Source of the DNA: an uncultured Gammaproteobacteria bacterium
Lineage (GTDB): Bacteria > Pseudomonadota > Gammaproteobacteria > Steroidobacterales > Rariloculaceae
Assembly: GCA_964503125.1 (NCBI GenBank)
Contig: CAZCZE010000010.1
Span: forward strand, 10,682 to 74,681
DNA length: 64,000 nucleotides
Direction: 5' to 3'
Position numbers and translations under genes: made by a program. Below the pieces are notes generated by a model. It had not been told where the DNA came from, did no database searches, and saw only the letters and a program-made list of their open reading frames with translations. Position 1 is the stretch's first letter, and each line of letters opens with the position of its first letter. This document shows, one piece after another, positions 24,084 to 64,000 of the stretch.

Positions 24084-24236
24084 GTGCTCGCGGATGGCCC
24101 TCTCGAGACCGTCGGCGCACAGGGGCAGCAATACGATCCTGCTATTGCTGCACGCCGCCATCCATGGCGGCGACGTGCGCCGACGAGCCCCAGGGACGGT
24201 CTTCCGGCGTGTCTCGAGAGGGCCATCCGCGAGCAC
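24084..24236. repeat. REP-like nested palindromic element, copy A
   Basis: 26-bp perfect outer inverted repeat (24084-24109 / 24211-24236). GAGAC...GTCTC boundary. Inner stem CGTCGGCGCAC / GTGCGCCGACG (24110-24120 / 24175-24185). 25-nt asymmetric segment AGCCCCAGGGACGGTCTTCCGGCGT (24186-24210). Two extra hairpins sit in the apical loop (24125-24151 and 24154-24171). It lies between convergent genes. Confidence 0.85.
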
Positions 24237-55404: not shown

Positions 55405-57032
55405 GCGCCCGCCGCAGGACGCCGCGCAAGACCGCTCCCACACCCTCGGCCGGCGCCCAGCGCCGCAGAGAGGCCACGCCTCGCCGCGCGCTCCTGAGCG
55501 TTGCAGACAAGCAAGGCCTCGTGCCGTTCGCTACGGCGCTCGCGCGGCTCGGCTTCGAAATCGTCTCGACGGGCGGCACGGCGAAGGCGTTGCGCGCCTC
55601 CGGTGTCCCCGTCACGGACGTCGCCGCGATCACGGGATTCCCCGAGATCATGGACGGCCGCGTGAAGACCCTGCACCCGCACGTTCACGGCGGCCTGTTG
55701 GCCCGCCGCGGCGTCGACGACGCCGCGCTCGCAACGCACGGCATCGGCGTCATCGACGTGCTGGTCGTCAACCTCTACCCGTTCGAAGCGACGACGGCGC
55801 GGCCCGATTGCACGGATGCCGAGGCCATCGAGAACATCGACGTCGGCGGCCCCGCGATGCTGCGCGCCGCAGCGAAGAATCACGAGCACGTCACGGTCGT
55901 CGTGGACCACAGGGACTACGAGCCCGTGCTCGCGGCGCTCGCCGACGGCCCCATCCCCGCGGCGCTGCGCCGGCAGCTCGCGATCAAAGCCTTCGGCCAC
56001 ACGGCGCGCTACGACGCCGCGATCAGCCACTATCTGCGAGCGCACAGCACCGCGCCCGACGACTGGGCGAATCCGCTGCTGCTCGGCTTCGAGCTCGGGC
56101 AACCGTTGCGCTACGGCGAGAATCCGCATCAACGCGCAGCGCTCTACCGCACGCCCGAGCAGCTGCCGGGCTCGGTCGCCCACGCGGCGCAGCTCCAGGG
56201 CAAGGAGCTGTCGTTCAACAACCTCGTCGACGCCGACGCCGCCGCTCAGGCCGTCAGGGCGTTCGACGCGGCGGCCTGCGTCATCGTCAAGCATGCAAAC
56301 CCGTGCGGCGTGGCCACGGCGGCCACACCCGTCAAGGCCTATGAGCTCGCCTACCGCACCGATCCGACATCGGCGTTCGGCGGCGTGATCGCCTTCAATC
56401 GGCCCCTCGACGAGGCGACCGCCGAGGCGATCGTCGGCCGGCAGTTCGCCGAGGTCGTCGTCGCCCCCGAGGTCCTCGAGGCGGCGCGCACCGCGCTGGC
56501 CAAGAAGCCGGCCATCCGCGTGCTCGCAACGGGTTGGCCGCGCGCGTCGACGACGGGCCGAGGGCCGAGCCTCGAGCTCAAGACCATCGAAGGCGGCCTG
56601 CTCGCGCAGGACGCGGACTTGGGCCGCGTCGATCTCGCGGCGGCAAAGGTCGTCACGAAGCGCGCGCCGACCGCGGCCGAGCTCCGCGACCTCAAATTCG
56701 CGTGGACCGTCGTCAAATACGTCAAATCGAATGCGATCGTGCTCGCGCGCGACGGCGCCACGGTCGGCATCGGCGCCGGCCAGCCGAGCCGCGTCATGAG
56801 CGCGCGCATCGCCGCGCTCAAAGCCGAGGAGGCCAAGCTCGAGGTGCCGGGCGCAGTGCTCGCGTCGGACGCGTTCTTTCCGTTTCGCGACGGCGTCGAT
56901 GCGGCCGCCGAGCGCGGCGTGCGCGCCATCGTCCAGCCCGGCGGCTCGCTGCGCGACGACGAGGTCGTGCGCGCAGCCGACGAGCTCGGGCTAGCGATGG
57001 TCTTCACGGGCATGCGCCACTTTCGCCACTGA
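55401..57032 (+). CDS. purH: Bifunctional AICAR transformylase / IMP cyclohydrolase
   Basis: [60 protein letters not shown] and the C-terminal GMRHFRH. The ATG overlaps the fis TGA. It has an N-terminal extension of about 20 aa relative to E. coli. Confidence 0.93.
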
Positions 57033-57049
57033 CGCATCGGGGGAGCGCA

Positions 57050-58345
57050 GTGAGGGTCTTGGTCATCGGCAGCGGCGGACGCGAGCACGCGATCGCTTGG
57101 AAGCTCGCGCAGTCGCCGCGAGTCGGCGAAGTCATCGTCGCCCCGGGCAACGCGGGCACGGCCACCGAGCGCAAGACGCGCAACGTCGCCGTCGGCGTCG
57201 CGGACCACGGCAAGCTCATCGAGGTCGCGCGCGCCGAGCAAGTGGCGCTCACGGTCGTGGGGCCCGAGATCCCGCTCGTGGCCGGCATCGTCGACCGCTT
57301 CGAGGCCGCCGGCCTCAAGTGCTTCGGGCCGAAGGCCGCGGGCGCGCAGCTCGAAGGCTCGAAGGCGTTCACGAAGGAGTTTCTCGTTCGGCACCGCATT
57401 CCGACGGCGGCCTATCGCACGTTCACGGATTTCGCCGCGGCGCGCGACTACGCGCGCACGCGCACACTCCCGATCGTCATCAAAGCCGACGGGCTCGCGG
57501 CCGGCAAAGGCGTCATCATCGCGCCGGCCTTGGCCGAGGCCGAGCAAACGCTCGACCGCGTGCTGCGCCAGCGGCAGTTCGGCGATGCGGGCGCCAAGGT
57601 CGTCATCGAGGATTTTCTCGCGGGCGAGGAAGCGAGCTTCATCGCGCTCGTCGACGGCCCACGCCTCGTGCCGCTCGCGAGCTCGCAGGACCACAAGACG
57701 CGCGACGACGGCGACCGCGGGCCCAACACGGGCGGCATGGGCGCCTATTCGCCGGCGCCGGTCGTGACCGACGCCGTGCACGAGCGTGTCATGCGCGAGA
57801 TCATGCTGCCGACCGTCCGCGGGCTCGCGGCCGATGGCATTGACTATCGCGGCTTCCTCTACGCGGGCCTCATGATCGACGGCGCGGGACAACCGCGCGT
57901 CATCGAGTTCAACTGCCGCCTCGGCGATCCCGAGACGCAGCCGATCCTGTTCCGTCTGCGCTCGGACCTGCTCGAGATCTTGTCGTCTTGCTTCGACGGC
58001 ACTCTTGGCGAGAAGCCGCTCGACTGGGACTCGCGCGCGACGGTCGGCGTCGTCATGGCGAGCCGCGGCTATCCCGACGCCTACGACAAGGGCAAGCCGA
58101 TCCGCGGCCTCGACGCAGCCACGGGCGCCGACGTGAAGGTTTTTCATGCGGGCACGAAGCTCGAAGGCGGCAAGGTCGTCACAGACGGCGGCCGCGTGCT
58201 CTGCGTCGTCGGCGCGGGCACGACCGTGCGCGCAGCCTGCGACGCAGCCTACTCGGGCGTCCGCCAGGTTACTTGGGACGGCGCCTTCTACCGCTCCGAC
58301 ATCGGCCACCGCGCGATCCAGCGCGAAGAGGGTGCTACTTCGTAG
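57050..58345 (+). CDS. purD: Phosphoribosylamine-glycine ligase
   Basis: GTG start. Contains VRVLVIGSGGREHAIAWKL, GPEIPLVAGIVD, IKADGLAAGKGV, NTGGMGAYSP and EFNCRLGDPETQ. Confidence 0.93.
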   Translation: MRVLVIGSGGREHAIAWKLAQSPRVGEVIVAPGNAGTATERKTRNVAVGVADHGKLIEVARAEQVALTVVGPEIPLVAGIVDRFEAAGLKCFGPKAAGAQLEGSKAFTKEFLVRHRIPTAAYRTFTDFAAARDYARTRTLPIVIKADGLAAGKGVIIAPALAEAEQTLDRVLRQRQFGDAGAKVVIEDFLAGEEASFIALVDGPRLVPLASSQDHKTRDDGDRGPNTGGMGAYSPAPVVTDAVHERVMREIMLPTVRGLAADGIDYRGFLYAGLMIDGAGQPRVIEFNCRLGDPETQPILFRLRSDLLEILSSCFDGTLGEKPLDWDSRATVGVVMASRGYPDAYDKGKPIRGLDAATGADVKVFHAGTKLEGGKVVTDGGRVLCVVGAGTTVRAACDAAYSGVRQVTWDGAFYRSDIGHRAIQREEGATS

Positions 58346-58363
58346 ACCGCGGGCGCGCGCTGC

Positions 58364-58460
58364 CGCGTGGAGGCTGTCCCGAGACACGCCGGAAGACCAT
58401 CCCTGGGGCTCGTCTGCGCACATCCCTGTGCGCAGACGGTCTCGGGACAGCCTCCACGCG
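58364..58460. repeat. REP-like nested palindromic element, copy B (inverted orientation relative to A and C)
   Basis: 22-bp perfect outer inverted repeat (58364-58385 / 58439-58460). GAGAC...GTCTC boundary. The asymmetric 25-nt segment is on the left side (58386-58410). Inner stem CGTCTGCGCAC / GTGCGCAGACG (58411-58421 / 58428-58438) with a 6-nt loop. Confidence 0.85.
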
Positions 58461-58586
58461 TCAGCACCCGCCCGCTACGGAGTCGGGTGATTTGGGGACG
58501 AGCACAGCGCGCACATCCGCACGGTGACGCGGAAGCGGCCGTGACGTCGAAAGAACTCTCTTTTCCCTGAGTGAGGCGCCTACGCA

Positions 58587-58729
58587 GCGTTACGGCGGCG
58601 GCGGGAGGACTTCGAGGGTCCTTCGCGAGACCGTCGGCGCACAGGGATGTGCGCCGACGAGCCCCAGGGACGGTCTTCGGGCGTGTCTCGCGACGGACCC
58701 TCGAAGGCCTCCCGTCGACGCCGTAACGC
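58587..58729. repeat. REP-like nested palindromic element, copy C
   Basis: 45-bp outer inverted repeat with 4 mismatches (58587-58631 / 58685-58729). Inner stem CGTCGGCGCAC / GTGCGCCGACG (58632-58642 / 58649-58659). Loop AGGGAT. Asymmetric segment AGCCCCAGGGACGGTCTTCGGGCGT (58660-58684). Confidence 0.85.
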
Positions 58730-58749
58730 GGAAGTAGAACGACCGAGCG

Positions 58750-60006
58750 TTATCGCTTCATGGACTCGAAGAAGTCGGCGTTCGTCTTCGTGTCCTGCAG
58801 CTTCGACAGCAAGAACTCGACGGCTGCGAGCTCGTCCATCGGATGCAGCACTTTGCGCAGCACCCACATCTTCTGCAGCTCGTCGGCCTGCGTGAGGAGC
58901 TCCTCTTTGCGCGTGCCCGAGCGGTTGATGTTGATGGCCGGGAACACGCGCTTCTCCGCGATGCGGCGATCCAGGTGGATCTCCATGTTGCCCGTGCCCT
59001 TGAACTCCTCGTAGATGACGTCGTCCATCTTGGAGCCCGTGTCGATGAGGGCCGTGGCGATGATCGTGAGGCTGCCGCCCTCCTCGATGTTGCGCGCCGC
59101 GCCGAAGAAGCGCTTCGGCCGCTGCAGCGCGTTCGCGTCGACGCCGCCCGTGAGCACCTTGCCCGACGACGGGACGACGGTGTTGTAGGCGCGCGCGAGG
59201 CGCGTGATCGAGTCGAGCAGGATGACGACGTCTTGCTTGTGCTCGGTGAGTCGCTTCGCTTTCTCGATGACCATCTCGGCCACCTGCACGTGGCGCGTCG
59301 CGGGCTCGTCGAACGTGCTCGACACCACCTCGCCGCGCACGGTGCGCTCCATCTCGGTGACCTCTTCCGGCCGCTCGTCGATGAGTAGCACGATGAGCTT
59401 CACGTCGGGATGATTCGCGGCAATCGACGCCGCGATGTTCTGCAGCAGCATCGTCTTACCGGCCTTTGGCGGCGAGACGATGAGCCCGCGCTGGCCTTTG
59501 CCGATCGGCGCGACCATGTCGATGATGCGCGCCGTCAAGTCTTCCGTGCTGCCGTTGCCCTGCTCGAGCTTGAGGCGCTTCTTGGGAAAGAGCGGCGTCA
59601 AGTTCTCGAAGAGCACCTTGCTCTTCGCGTTCTCGGGCGCGTCGAGGTTGATCTCGCCGATCTTGAGCAGCGCAAAGTAGCGCTCGCCGTCCTTGGGCGG
59701 CCGGATGAGACCGGACACCGTATCGCCGGTGCGCAAGTTGAAGCGGCGGATCTGGCTCGGGCTCACGTAGATGTCGTCGGGGCCCGCGAGATACGAGCCG
59801 TCCGCGGAACGCAGGAAGCCGAAGCCGTCCTGCAGGATCTCGAGCACGCCTTCGCCGAAGATGCTCTCGCCGTTCTTGGCGTGGGCTTTGAGGATCGAGA
59901 AGATGATGTCTTGCTTGCGCGAGCGGGCCAGATTCTCGAGGCCCATCGACTCGGCGAGCTGGACGAGCGCGGCCGCGGGCCGCGTCTTGAGCTCGGCGAG
60001 ATTCAT
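58750..60006 (-). CDS. rho: Transcription termination factor Rho (canonical core; a possible N-terminal extension to 60081 or 60171 is discussed in the findings)
   Basis: From [42 protein letters not shown] the protein is collinear with, and highly similar to, E. coli Rho over 418 aa ([41 protein letters not shown]-terminal FFESMKR). The reading frame stays open upstream to 60207. Confidence 0.95.
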
Positions 60007-60088
60007 CGCGTTTTTCGTCGATTCGAGCTCCGCAGCCGGAATGACGTCGAACTCTTCGTCGTCGGGGAACTCCTCGCGCATCGGGCCG

Positions 60089-60111
60089 CCCCCACCCCCG
60101 CCCCCGCCCCC
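60089..60111 (-). other. Canonical G-quadruplex motif (G5-N1-G5-N1-G5-N1-G5) on the rho sense strand
   Basis: The plus strand reads CCCCC-A-CCCCC-G-CCCCC-G-CCCCC, so the minus strand reads GGGGGCGGGGGCGGGGGTGGGGG. It lies 83-105 nt upstream of the canonical rho ATG. If translated in the rho frame it encodes Gly9. Confidence 0.9.
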
Positions 60112-60231
60112 GCGATTGCGCCGGTTGCGTTTGCCGTTGCCGTCGCCCCCTTGATGCGGGCCGTCTTTCATGCGCGCGCGCGCCGAATTGCCTAGGTATC
60201 CCCTCACGACTGCATCCCGAAGTGTGTTGAG

Positions 60232-60588
60232 TTAGGTGCGTATGGCATTTAGCTGTTTCTCGGCATTTAGATGTTTCTCGAGGAACGATTCGAGCTGTGC
60301 TTTGGAAACTGCGCCGACTTGTTGCGCGGCGACGGTGCCGTTGCGGAATAGGAGCAGAGTTGGAATACCGCGGATGTTGAACTTGGGCGGCGTCTTGGGG
60401 TTCTCGTCGATGTTGAGCTTGACGACGCGGAGCTTGTCTTTGTACTCGGTGGCGATGGTGTCGAGAATCGGCGCAATCATTTTGCAGGGGCCGCACCATT
60501 CGGCCCAGAAATCGAGCAGCACGGGCTCTTTGGATTTCACGACGTCCTGCTCAAAAGCCGCGTCTGTCGTATGTACGATCTCACTCAC
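60232..60588 (-). CDS. trxA: Thioredoxin 1
   Basis: GTG start at 60588 after GAGG. (M)[42 protein letters not shown]... contains the WCGPC active site. 118 aa with a short C-terminal extension. Confidence 0.9.
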
Positions 60589-60790
60589 AAGGCTTGAATC
60601 CTCTGATTTCCTACCCCCTCCAAGGCCCTCTGAGGCGGGTAGGCGAAAGTCGATAACACCCAGTTGAGCTAAGCCGAAAGTGACGCCGCCTGGCGGGTCA
60701 GGCACAATCTGCGGCAGGTGCTTCCTTCGAGGCTCGCAGGAATACAGTGGGTATCTAGGAGGGCGTGCCGGTATTTTTAACTGCCGAGAC

Positions 60791-62131
60791 GTGAATTTGC
60801 AAGTATCGAGGTCCGATATAGACACCGCTCCCCCTTCGAGCCACCACCTCACCGAGCTGCGCTTTACCGACCTTCCGTTATCGGAAGGAGTACAGCGTGG
60901 CATCGCCGACGCAGGGTTCGTTCACTGCACGCCCATTCAGAGCAAGACTCTGCCGATGGCGCTCGAGGGCCAAGACGTCGCAGGCCAGGCGCAAACGGGC
61001 ACGGGCAAGACGGCTGCGTTTCTGCTGGCGATGTTCCATCGCCTCGAGAACACCCCGCGGCCTCCAATCGACGACGGACCGCCGGCGCCGCGGGCGTTGA
61101 TCATGGCCCCCACACGCGAGCTCGCGGTACAAGTTCACACCGATGCGACGCAGCTCGGCAAGCACTTACCGTTCACGCTCGGTCTCGCGTTCGGCGGCAC
61201 AGATTACGACAAACAGCGCGAGATTCTCGCCGCGGGTGTCGACGTGCTCATCGGCACACCGGGGCGCCTCATCGATTTCTACAAACAGCGCGTGTTCGGT
61301 CTGCGCGGCATTCAAGTGCTGATCCTCGACGAGGCCGATCGCATGTTCGATCTCGGCTTCATCAAGGACATCCGCTACGTCTTGCGGCGGCTGCCCGAGC
61401 ACCAGCACCGCTTGAACATGCTGTTCTCGGCCACGCTCTCGCATCGCGTGCTCGAGCTCGCCTACGAGCACATGAACGATCCCGAGCTCGTGCGCATCGA
61501 GCCCGACAAGATGACGGTTGATCGCGTGACGCAGTGCATCTATTTTCCGGCGATGGAGGAGAAGCTGCCGCTGCTCCTCACACTGCTCCGCGATCGCGAC
61601 GCGAGCCGCACGATGGTGTTCGTCAACACGCGCCGCGAAGCGGATCGGCTACGCGACGCGCTCCAGCACAACGGCATCAACGCCGAAGCGCTGTCGGGCG
61701 ACGTGCCGCAGCGCAAGCGCTTGCGCATGCTCAAGGACTTTCAGGCCGGCGAGCTCGCCGTGCTCATCGGCACCGACGTCGCCTCGCGCGGCCTACACGT
61801 GCCGGGCGTGAGCCACGTGTTCAACTACGACTTGCCCCAGGATCCCGAGGACTACGTTCATCGCATCGGCCGCACCGCACGCGCGGGCGCCGCGGGCGAC
61901 GCCATCAGCTTCGGCTGCGAGACTTATGCGATCTCGCTGCCCGACATCGAAGCGTTCCTCGGCCGCAAGATCCCCGTCGCGACGTTCGACCACAACGCAC
62001 TCGTGACGACGTTGCCCAATGCGCCGCGCACCCATCGGCCGCACTTTGGCCCCGGCAACGGCGGCCGCCGCCCCGGCGGGCCGCCGGGCGGGCGCCGGCC
62101 GCGGCGCGCGCACTCGGGCCGGCGCCCGTAG
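60791..62131 (+). CDS. rhlB: ATP-dependent RNA helicase RhlB (DEAD-box)
   Basis: Q-motif context (FTDLPL...GFVHCTPIQ), [31 protein letters not shown], and an Arg/Gly/Pro-rich C-terminal tail. It sits next to trxA-rho, as in E. coli. The start is uncertain (GTG 60791 chosen; no in-frame ATG nearby). Confidence 0.85.
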
Positions 62132-62138
62132 CGCGGCC

Positions 62139-62807
62139 CTAGACGAGCTCGAACACCCCGTCTACGCCCACGAAGTCGGCGATCGTGCGCGGCGGCTCGC
62201 GCGAGTCCGGGCGGCGAATCGCGATCGTGTGCCGCACACCGTGGGCGCGCGCGGCCGCAAGCACTGCGACGCTGTCCTCGACGAGCAGCGTGCGCACGCC
62301 GTCGAACGGCGCGTGCCGCTCGAGCGCGAGCCAAAATGCTGCACTCTCTTTCGGCGCCGCGAAGTCGTGCGAGCAGACGACGCCGTCGACGAGCTTGTCG
62401 ATGCCTGTATGCTCCGCTTTGACGGCGAACGTGTCGCGGTGCGCGTTCGTGACTACGAGCACGCGTTTGCCGCGCGCGCGCACGGCGGCAAGAAACGCTT
62501 GCGCGCCGGGCAGAAAGCGGATGTGCTCGCGATGCTCGCGCTTCAGAGTCTTGAGATCCATGCCGAGATCGCGCGTCCAGTGATCGAGGCAATACCAGTC
62601 GAGCGTTCCGACCTTGGAGGCGAAGCGCGGCGCGAGCGCCATCTCCGCCGCATTCACGCTCATGCCGTTCCGCTCCGCGTAGCACCGCGGCACGAGCTCG
62701 CGCCAGAAGAAATTGTCGAACGCGAGATCGAGCAGCGTGCCGTCCATGTCGACGAGCACGGTGTCGATCGCCTCCCAATCGACGACGGCGTTGGCTGCGT
62801 GTGCCAT
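62139..62807 (-). CDS. yrfG: HAD-family GMP/IMP nucleotidase YrfG-like
   Basis: WEAIDTVLVDMDGTLLDLAFDNFFWRELVP...LDWYCLDHWTRDLGMDL is closely parallel to E. coli YrfG as I recall it. ATG 62807 is preferred over 62822. Confidence 0.8.
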   Translation of the reverse strand: MAHAANAVVDWEAIDTVLVDMDGTLLDLAFDNFFWRELVPRCYAERNGMSVNAAEMALAPRFASKVGTLDWYCLDHWTRDLGMDLKTLKREHREHIRFLPGAQAFLAAVRARGKRVLVVTNAHRDTFAVKAEHTGIDKLVDGVVCSHDFAAPKESAAFWLALERHAPFDGVRTLLVEDSVAVLAAARAHGVRHTIAIRRPDSREPPRTIADFVGVDGVFELV

Positions 62808-62827
62808 GCCGCTATGATACAAGAGCC

Positions 62828-63664
62828 ATGTTGAGCGACCCTGCCGAGCAACGACGACGACTCGACGCCGTGTGCGCCATCGCGCGCGCCGCGGGTCATG
62901 CCATTCTCGAGGTCTACGGAAGCGAGTTCGCGGTGTCGCGGAAAAGCGACGATTCGCCGCTCACCGAAGCCGACCGTGTGGCGCACACGATCATTTCGCG
63001 CGATGTCACGGCGCTCGACGACGCGATCCCATTGCTTTCCGAGGAATCGGCGCCGTTGGATCACGCGACGCGCCGCGGCTGGTCGCGCTATTGGCTCGTG
63101 GATCCCCTCGACGGCACGAAGGAGTTCGTGAAGCGCAACGGCGAGTTCACGGTCAACATTGCGCTCGTCGTCGACGGGCGTGCCGTGCTCGGCGCCGTGT
63201 GCGCGCCCGTGCTCGACCGCATGTACTTCGGCGCGCTCGCGCTCGGCGCGTGGCGGGCCGACGGCGGAGCCGCGCCGCAGGCCATCGCCGTCCGCAAGAC
63301 CGCGGCCTCGCCGCTGCGCGTCGTCGGCAGCCGCAGCCACCCGAGTCCCGAGCTCGCCGGCTACCTCGCGCGCTTAGGTCCTTACGAAATCACCGCTATG
63401 GGCAGCTCGCTCAAAATATGTCTCATTGCCGAGGGCGCGGCCGACGTTTACCCGCGGCTCGGACCGACGTCGGAATGGGACACGGCCGCCGCGCAGGCTA
63501 TCCTCGAAAGCGCCGGCGGGCGTATGATCGACCTAGCCGGCCGGCCGCTGCGGTACAACTCCAAAGACGACTTGTTGAATCCACACTTCCTGGCCTTTGG
63601 CGACCAGCAGCGGGACTGGTTGGCACCGATCCAAACAACGCGTGGACGAGAAAGTCGACACTGA
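62828..63664 (+). CDS. cysQ: 3'(2'),5'-bisphosphate nucleotidase CysQ
   Basis: Starts at ATG 62828. Contains SPLTEADRVAH, LSEES, WLVDPLDGTKEF, MGSSLKICLIAEG and EWDTAAAQAIL. Confidence 0.88.
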   Translation: MLSDPAEQRRRLDAVCAIARAAGHAILEVYGSEFAVSRKSDDSPLTEADRVAHTIISRDVTALDDAIPLLSEESAPLDHATRRGWSRYWLVDPLDGTKEFVKRNGEFTVNIALVVDGRAVLGAVCAPVLDRMYFGALALGAWRADGGAAPQAIAVRKTAASPLRVVGSRSHPSPELAGYLARLGPYEITAMGSSLKICLIAEGAADVYPRLGPTSEWDTAAAQAILESAGGRMIDLAGRPLRYNSKDDLLNPHFLAFGDQQRDWLAPIQTTRGRESRH

Positions 63665-63857
63665 GACCTTCAGGAACGTGGAGCGGCTCAAGCAATTGCG
63701 CGTCGAGCACCGGGACCTCGATCAGGTCATCGCCCGGCTGGTCAACGATCCGAACGTGGATCAGCTCATGTTGAAGCGTTTGAAGAAGCGCAAGCTGATG
63801 CTCAAAGACATGATCACTCAGCTCGAAAGCGCCAGGATCCCGGACTTGAACGCCTGA
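63642..63857 (+). CDS. YdcH/DUF465 family small protein
   Basis: LKQLRVEHRDLDQVIARL....MLKRLKKRKLMLKDMITQLESARIPD is the characteristic DUF465 pattern. A GTG start at 63642 is assumed, overlapping the cysQ 3' end by 23 nt. The ORF-track start at 63597 is less likely. Confidence 0.7.
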   Translation: MDEKVDTETFRNVERLKQLRVEHRDLDQVIARLVNDPNVDQLMLKRLKKRKLMLKDMITQLESARIPDLNA

Positions 63858-63867
63858 GGGTACGCTT

Positions 63868-64000
63868 TTGGACCTGATTGCCGACATCGGCGCAACCAAC
63901 ACGCGCTGCGCCCTCCTCGACGACAAAGGAAAGGAAGTCGCCACCGAGGTGTTCGAGAACGGCGACTTCAACGGTGTCGCCGGCGTGCTGGGCGTCTACT
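63868..64000 (+). CDS. glk: Probable glucokinase, N-terminal fragment (runs off the window end)
   Basis: TTG start. LDLIADIGATNTRCALLDDKGKEV... matches the ROK/Glk N-terminal ATP-binding motif (DIGGTNxRxAL). Only about 44 codons are visible. Confidence 0.55.
   Translation, partial: MDLIADIGATNTRCALLDDKGKEVATEVFENGDFNGVAGVLGVY

Follow-up and report, generated by a model that had tools for sequence, protein, structure and literature searches.

A probable N-terminal extension of transcription termination factor Rho with a glycine-run quadruplex motif in an uncultured gammaproteobacterium

Just ahead of the canonical start of rho, in a 64,000-nucleotide (nt) stretch of DNA from an uncultured gammaproteobacterium (contig CAZCZE010000010.1; the whole stretch is referred to below as the window), the sense strand carries four tracts of five guanines, and the question that this locus raises is whether these tracts form a regulatory G-quadruplex (G4) in an untranslated leader or encode a glycine-rich part of Rho itself. 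An initial annotation, made from the letters of the window, had offered both readings. Based on comparison with relatives, we consider it probable that the rho coding sequence has its 5′ end in positions 60007-60207 of the minus strand, that these specify a disordered extension of the kind termed Type 2a, and that the G4 motif is incidental. Translation would then proceed from GTG 60207, 24 nt past the trxA stop, and give a 485-amino-acid (aa) Rho with a 67-residue, lineage-specific initial region, laid out as an MRGYLGN tip, a basic block, an acidic block, and a short helix leading into the Rho_N bundle. The glycine codons, (GGG GGY)x4 followed by GGC, would represent a period-6 microsatellite, the length of which has drifted 3 nt at a time from one relative to another. 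The elements on which this account draws are the following.

58750-60207, minus strand: rho coding sequence, 485 codons plus stop, putative start GTG 60207 (open reading frame and TIGR00767 match)
60007-60207, minus strand: 67 codons for the N-terminal 'initial region' of Rho (33 relatives have a homologous open frame)
60187-60207, minus strand: putative start GTG and the (M)RGYLGN motif (residue conservation, synonymous codons)
60076-60186, minus strand: basic, Gly/Asn/Arg-rich low-complexity block, residues 8-44 (charge and composition)
60085-60111, minus strand: Gly9 run, codons 33-41, GGG GGC GGG GGC GGG GGT GGG GGC GGC
60089-60111, minus strand: G4 motif of the mRNA and of the sense (non-template) DNA strand (motif scan and ViennaRNA)
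60007-60075, minus strand: acidic block, residues 45-67, net charge -8, ending in (D/E)(V/I)I(S/P)xxEL

Protein-level conservation upstream of the canonical Rho start

The window protein was identified as transcription termination factor Rho by an equivalog match above the curated cutoff (TIGR00767, 713.7 bits versus a cutoff of 509.45, residues 69-484) and by its domain set. NF006886 matched with 707.8 bits, and Pfam domains were placed at residues 72-114 (Rho_N), 119-192 (Rho_RNA_bind), and 227-430 (ATP-synt_ab, the RecA-type ATPase). The core is ~80% identical across gammaproteobacteria, E. coli included, and no family in Pfam or NCBIfam covers residues 1-67. As the initial annotation had described, the canonical MNLAELK begins at ATG 60006 and follows a frame that stays open to near the trxA stop: 201 nt upstream of ATG 60006 are open from GTG 60207, and the frame continues open as far as the trxA TAA at 60234-60232. 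What that annotation overlooked is that the open reading frame (ORF) has its mechanically called upstream end at GTG 60207, such that 67 codons precede the canonical Met. Its estimates of guanine-plus-cytosine (GC) content, ~80% at third and ~51% at second codon positions, were close to the measured values of 0.79 and 0.54; across codon positions 1/2/3, the extension has 0.73/0.54/0.79 and the 37 long ORFs of the window have 0.70/0.48/0.86.

Relatives were drawn from a scan of one genome per species, which returned 80 rho loci, with three closer relatives added from metagenome contigs and 15 more obtained by looking up additional contigs and by scanning with a degenerate DNA pattern; in total, 33 relatives with the extension are reported here, and 20 loci are covered by the codon and peptide alignment. 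A related peptide was present in an open frame upstream of MNL(T/A)ELK in 16 of the 80 loci, and the carriers comprised Steroidobacteraceae, Woeseia, and gammaproteobacterial metagenome-assembled genomes. Among the same 80 loci, no comparable extension was found in Pseudomonas, Enterobacterales, Alteromonas, Thiohalocapsa, or the other retrieved genomes. Extension length ranged from 56 to 89 aa across the 33 relatives, 16 of which are close to the window (82-89% nucleotide identity), and one database protein (P0002) is 98% identical to the window Rho and likewise has Gly9.

The extension has evolved in the manner of a coding sequence. Residues R2, G3, L5, G6, N7, I56, and L61 were invariant in the 20 aligned loci while being written with 2-5 codons each, and the invariant Leu residues alternated between CTN and TTR codons. 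The initial annotation had asked whether third-position variation is synonymous; when the window and locus L081 were aligned as nucleotides without regard to frame, substitutions at codon positions 1/2/3 numbered 3/1/23 and the indels measured 3 and 9 nt. Just upstream of GTG 60207, only 24 of 60 positions were identical between the same two sequences, and 36 were mismatched. This pattern indicates that selection on the extension acts at the level of the protein, not of the RNA.

The blocks of the extension differ in how strictly they are kept. The tip appears almost invariant and constrained at the protein level: Y4 was present in 19 of the 20 aligned loci, and R2, G3, Y4, L5, and G6 were invariant in 55 database proteins. 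The basic block varied in length and sequence and nevertheless retained a net charge of +7 to +12 in all 20 aligned loci; in the window, residues 1-44 sum to +8. The acidic block ranged from -4 to -9 in the same loci, with I56 and L61 written in three synonymous codons each, and the semi-conserved (D/E)(V/I)I(S/P)xxEL stands directly before the canonical Met. Overall, the charge of the extension was near zero in most relatives. The initial annotation had called the basic segment 'RGG-like'; a basic block is indeed present, but the label is loose, since the window extension holds a single RGG (0-3 in relatives) and therefore is not a proper RGG box, which takes at least two close RGG repeats. 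An AlphaFold model of residues 1-200, built on a 55-sequence alignment and with a mean predicted local distance difference test (pLDDT) score of 55, which is low, was used only for the contrast of disordered versus ordered; in it, residues 1-56 come out, by prediction, as intrinsically disordered (pLDDT <50), and a short predicted helix at 58-65 lies ahead of a confident Rho_N bundle.

The idea that the Gly content of the extension tracks local GC was dropped, as the two were not correlated among 34 sequences, the window included (Spearman 0.14, p = 0.43). We also observed that rho is split or frameshifted soon after the N-terminal domain in L084 (601-951 and 970-1551), P0002, P0029, and P0082, most likely through assembly errors in the source contigs.

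Glycines and G-tracts

The minus strand at 60111-60089 reads GGGGGCGGGGGCGGGGGTGGGGG, that is, four G5 tracts with 1-nt loops, exactly where the initial annotation had placed them, and presents the canonical G4 pattern of at least four tracts of at least three G with loops of 1-7 nt. Within the 64-kb window (GC content 67.3%), GGGGGCGGGGGCGGGGGTGGGGG is, both strands considered, the sole G4 motif whose tracts have at least four G, and a motif of this type arose in none of 100 dinucleotide-preserving shuffles. With G-quadruplex energies enabled in ViennaRNA, the minimum-free-energy fold of the mRNA included a five-layer G4 and was ~58 kcal/mol more stable than the best G4-free fold, a model value that involves an extrapolated energy. 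According to Tandem Repeats Finder, 60086-60113 is a tandem repeat with a period of 6 and 4.7 copies. GGG accounts for 14% of the Gly codons in the window.

Among relatives, it was the glycines that recurred. All 16 close relatives had a Gly run of 6, 7, 8, 9, 10, or 11 residues at the same position, the lengths differing by whole codons in 3-nt steps, and these runs were almost wholly composed of GGC and GGT, with GGG at no more than two codons; L084, L085, and L086 are those that carry one or two GGG codons. None of the 33 extension-bearing relatives had a G4 motif at the Gly run (0/33), and the 16 close ones were no exception (0/16). The closest comparison in protein terms is L098, which has an identical 67-aa extension and encodes the run as GGC GGC GGC GGT GGT GGC GGC GGC GGA. 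More distant relatives had Gly runs of up to 13 residues without GGG in the run, or no Gly run, and the only other G4-type match among the 33 was a weaker, G3-tract motif elsewhere in the extension of L008. G-tracts conserved at orthologous positions, the pattern expected of a functional G4, were not seen in the 33 relatives. The initial annotation had asked whether the tracts are conserved as nucleotides or as glycines: the G-tracts and the G4 motif occur in the window only, and what persists in the 16 close relatives is Gly6-11.

These comparisons indicate that the G-tracts are kept as glycines and not as nucleotides, that selection maintains a flexible basic segment rich in Gly, and that the G4 motif is an incidental by-product of the GGG codons of this genome and not a conserved regulatory element. 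The motif is real as a sequence if the assembly is right, yet incidental. More generally, a 'maximal' G4 motif in a high-GC ORF can be mere glycine codons, and the two readings are clearly told apart once relatives are compared.

The translation start and the trxA-rho junction

Three further elements, again on the minus strand, bear on where Rho begins.

60004-60006, minus strand: ATG of Met68, at the position of the E. coli-type Rho start, without a Shine-Dalgarno match
60215-60218, minus strand: weak Shine-Dalgarno-like GGGA, 8-11 nt upstream of GTG 60207
60232-60588, minus strand: trxA (thioredoxin), with a probable GTG start at 60588 and a TAA stop at 60234-60232 (WCGPC motif in the ORF)

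Translation of the window Rho most likely starts at GTG 60207 and not at ATG 60171. The first codon of rho varied between GTG and ATG among relatives, and in 14 of the 17 loci with a visible trxA (L001-L010, L012, L015, L016, and L021) the trxA TGA overlapped it as (G/A)TGA; the genes beside rho in relatives matched Pfam Thioredoxin. A 4-nt stop/start overlap is typical of translationally coupled genes; it implies that thioredoxin and Rho are coupled in translation, and it accounts for the missing Shine-Dalgarno sequence. In 17 of the 20 aligned loci there was no other in-frame start codon upstream of the MRGYLGN start, and an in-frame stop lay one codon upstream of it in L002, L007, L013, and L083. 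Met68 was kept in 18 of the 20; L011 and L016 have Leu (CTC) where the canonical Met would be, so that Rho in these two must start upstream. Met13 (ATG 60171) and Met43 (ATG 60081), both of which the initial annotation had correctly listed, were confined to the closest sub-lineage, and many relatives are already annotated from MRGYLGN by gene finders and the NCBI pipeline.

The window and its sub-lineage have departed from the overlapping arrangement. The overlap is lost there and replaced by a spacer of 14-39 nt, 24 nt in the window itself, and the 3′ end of trxA has been remodelled, an 18-nt duplication included. No Shine-Dalgarno match was found upstream of ATG 60171 or ATG 60006 in the window, in agreement with the initial annotation, which had noted no clear one at either codon. 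Upstream of the start, L081, L084, and L085 share only GGGA(T/A)GCAGTC or AGGATGCAGTC, with GGGA or AGGA at -11 to -8. Arg2 (60202-60204) was encoded by AGG or AGA in the window and in all 33 relatives, and these two codons make up 4.6% of the Arg codons of the window; an AGR codon is found at this position because the overlapping TGA forces it in most relatives, and it has been retained in the sub-lineage without the overlap too.

Several observations concern the surroundings of this junction. The trxA duplication is in tandem (2.1 copies, 94% match, 60244-60280 on the minus strand, at the trxA 3′ end) and encodes part of a lengthened C-terminal tail of TrxA, which in relatives ends in ...FLDSNL*. 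The trxA TAA is in frame with the rho GTG, 27 nt apart (60205-60234), with one stop and eight sense codons between, and this shared frame is probably due to chance. A scan of 58400-61000 found no sigma-70-like promoter, and its two terminator-like matches were no more than chance gives. A DEAD-box helicase gene (RhlB-like, 60680-62131, plus strand) with an Arg/Gly/Pro-rich C-terminal tail is divergent from trxA, by which the E. coli order rhlB, trxA, rho is conserved. On the plus strand, the ORFs 59410-60195 and 59771-60154 are antisense to rho, one encoding a Pro run opposite the Gly run, and were judged to be high-GC shadow ORFs, not genes. Just downstream of rho lies a palindromic repeat of ~140 nt (58587-58729) with 45-nt arms that are 91% complementary; a second, related palindrome adjoins at 58349-58475, and a third, partial copy is located 34 kb away at 24098-24222. 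This element, which gave a spurious Rfam match to MIR5534, may be a terminator or resemble repetitive extragenic palindromic sequences or miniature inverted-repeat transposable elements.

Some of the evidence weighs against a coding extension with an incidental G4. Under independent codon choice at window usage, four G5 tracts in Gly9 would arise with P~0.002, and the arrangement thus needs a special cause, for which hexamer slippage, selection, and sequencing error are candidates; slippage or homogenisation of the GGGGGC unit in a hexanucleotide microsatellite is the simplest. A very recent, species-specific G4 function is possible, the nearest DNA compared being 82-89% identical. Moreover, the start at GTG 60207 and the N-terminus that follows from it are deduced by comparison, the Shine-Dalgarno-like element before that codon is weak, and the function proposed for the extension is drawn from analogy. 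Selection and error lead to two rival accounts of the tracts. It seems quite unlikely to us that the region is coding as described and that the G5x4 quadruplex, in RNA or non-template DNA and ~100 nt into the ORF, also throttles rho translation or transcription in this species; the motif is as strong as G4 motifs get and unique in the window, its predicted stability and its rarity under independent codon choice would fit such a role, and stabilised RNA G4s in M. tuberculosis PE/PPE genes inhibit translation (PMC10801317), but the absence of a G4 at the Gly run in 33 relatives, the 16 close ones and the identical-peptide L098 among them, speaks against it, as do an apparent avoidance of GGG in the runs of relatives, the neutral origin that a period-6 repeat provides, the extrapolation behind the folding energy, and the capacity that ribosomes and helicases may have to keep the tract unfolded. 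That sequencing or assembly error produced some or all of the G5 tracts, with GGT miscalled GGG in a true run of (GGT GGC)n type, is unlikely but deserves consideration: the window run equals the (GGT GGC)n of L094, L092, and L089 with T-to-G changes at alternate third positions, and the strongest systematic error known for Illumina sequencing is the change of GGT to GGG, above all where a GGC motif precedes (PMC3295828). Errors of this sort are nonetheless strand-specific and normally outvoted in a consensus, codon 38 was left as an unconverted GGT, and the GGG codons in the runs of L084, L085, and L086 are genuine.

The remaining alternatives concern which part of the region is translated. 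The initial annotation was right that a coding extension would comprise basic, Gly-rich, and acidic parts but had it begin at ATG 60171 (MKDGP...), which would give an extension of 55 aa. As a start codon, ATG is preferable to GTG, and ATG 60171 was the choice of automatic gene calls for P0002 and P0005, yet a start at this codon is very improbable, given that Met13 occurs only in the closest sub-lineage, that the 12 codons upstream of it form the most conserved part of the extension and vary only synonymously, and that it has no Shine-Dalgarno sequence. We would also give rather little credence to the production of two isoforms, a long one from GTG 60207 and a short, E. coli-like one from ATG 60006. 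The retention of Met68 in most loci would suit it, and ribosome stalling at the G4 or at poly-Gly could, speculatively, favour internal initiation; against this, ATG 60006 has no Shine-Dalgarno match before it in the window or in most relatives, Met68 has been lost in L011 and L016, and a Met there is also explained by the structural part that it plays where the Rho_N domain begins. In E. coli, a long leader separates trxA from rho, and through it Rho attenuates its own transcription. The other reading of the initial annotation followed this model, with an untranslated rho leader, Rho starting at ATG 60006 (Met68 does align with the E. coli start), and the G4 as a cis-regulatory element of autoregulation, and we find it scarcely credible here. 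The spacer of only 24 nt leaves no room for a leader, in 14 of 17 relatives the trxA stop and the rho start overlap, substitutions are of coding type and indels are multiples of 3, two relatives are missing Met68, the G4 is not conserved, and a permissive Rfam search of 57000-64000 matched the region to no family of leaders or cis-regulatory elements and gave only spurious matches elsewhere. An E. coli-type leader or attenuator was accordingly ruled out as a candidate on the grounds of spacer length, coding-type evolution, and the lack of an Rfam match, and this genome lacks the kind of rho leader known from E. coli. With the coding extension preferred, Rho here should be annotated as 485 aa from GTG 60207, not from ATG 60171 or ATG 60006.

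Possible function and known systems

The N-terminus of Rho is located on the hexamer crown that bears the primary RNA-binding sites. Six basic tails around this crown could add RNA affinity or avidity, or promote condensation, while the acidic block might balance or gate their charge. By analogy, we put at roughly even odds the proposal that, in a genome of 67% GC, the six tails increase affinity or avidity for RNA and that the acidic block tempers this effect. The analogies are with M. tuberculosis Rho, in which the Arg/Gly-rich, disordered NID is required to capture structured, GC-rich Rut sites (PMC13650167), and with Bacteroides Rho, in which a disordered region drives condensates (review, PMC12360218). 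A more elaborate and improbable proposal is that the extension is a distinct regulatory module and not a generic RNA-sticky tail. This module would consist of the invariant MRGYLGN tip, the basic block, and the acidic block; the acidic block may mask the basic block or the primary RNA-binding site, leading to auto-inhibition of Rho or a switch into condensates; synthesis would be tied to that of thioredoxin through the (G/A)TGA overlap of trxA and rho; and in this species an ultra-stable G5x4 RNA quadruplex within the ORF would add a K+- or helicase-dependent throttle on Rho dosage.

The locus resembles trxA-rhoL-rho of E. coli in the order of an rhlB-like DEAD-box helicase gene (divergent here), trxA, and rho, and differs from it in having a 24-nt spacer in place of a leader, a 4-nt overlap in most relatives, and no rhoL-like ORF. 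As to the quadruplex motif, RNA G4s in the PE/PPE (PE_PGRS) genes of M. tuberculosis (PMC10801317) likewise consist of sense-strand G-tracts derived from GGN Gly codons in high-GC ORFs; those are numerous, recurrent, and shown to fold, whereas the window has a single predicted tract that is absent in relatives.

For the protein, the nearest parallels are other Rho factors with disordered additions. According to the text of Moreira et al. (2024, NAR; PMC11347177), an 'initial region' is a segment of >25 aa before Rho_N and occurs in 18.7% of Rho sequences; such regions are predicted to be disordered and carry RxR motifs, and a Rho with an initial region only is classed as Type 2a, Xanthomonas being the proteobacterial example with +214 aa. 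The window Rho, read from GTG 60207, has more than 25 aa before Rho_N, which extends from residue 72 of 485, lacks the >25-aa insertion between Rho_N and the RNA-binding domain that would point to Type 2b or 2c, and is predicted by AlphaFold to be disordered in the part concerned, all of which identifies it as a Type 2a Rho. It shares with the Type 2a proteins of X. campestris and X. oryzae an R/N/G bias, RxR-type motifs, predicted disorder, and occurrence in a minority of Pseudomonadota. The extension is much shorter here, at 56-89 aa versus +214 aa in X. oryzae, and the MRGYLGN tip, the basic-then-acidic layout, and Steroidobacter go unmentioned in the portion of that text considered here (PMC11347177). 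We conclude that the extension is genuine and belongs to a known class, within which it had been annotated before but not described.

Similarities extend to the actinobacterial NID (PMC13650167), which is also rich in Arg/Gly(/Asn/Asp), poorly conserved, disordered, situated on the RNA-binding face, and found in a high-GC organism. It differs in its size of ~150-240 aa and in its place as an insertion that separates the Rho_N helix bundle from the OB fold, whereas the extension here occupies the extreme N-terminus; because Rho_N and Rho_RNA_bind are contiguous in the window protein, an NID of the actinobacterial type was ruled out as its identity. As a mechanistic model for extra RNA capture, the NID is plausible nonetheless (PMC13650167). 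To the Rho factors with disordered N-terminal regions, the present locus adds a compact and well-delimited case, with 56-89 aa, a seven-residue tip, and a basic/acidic diblock, and since its core is ~80% identical to that of E. coli, it lends itself well to the question of what tails of this type contribute to an otherwise E. coli-like Rho.

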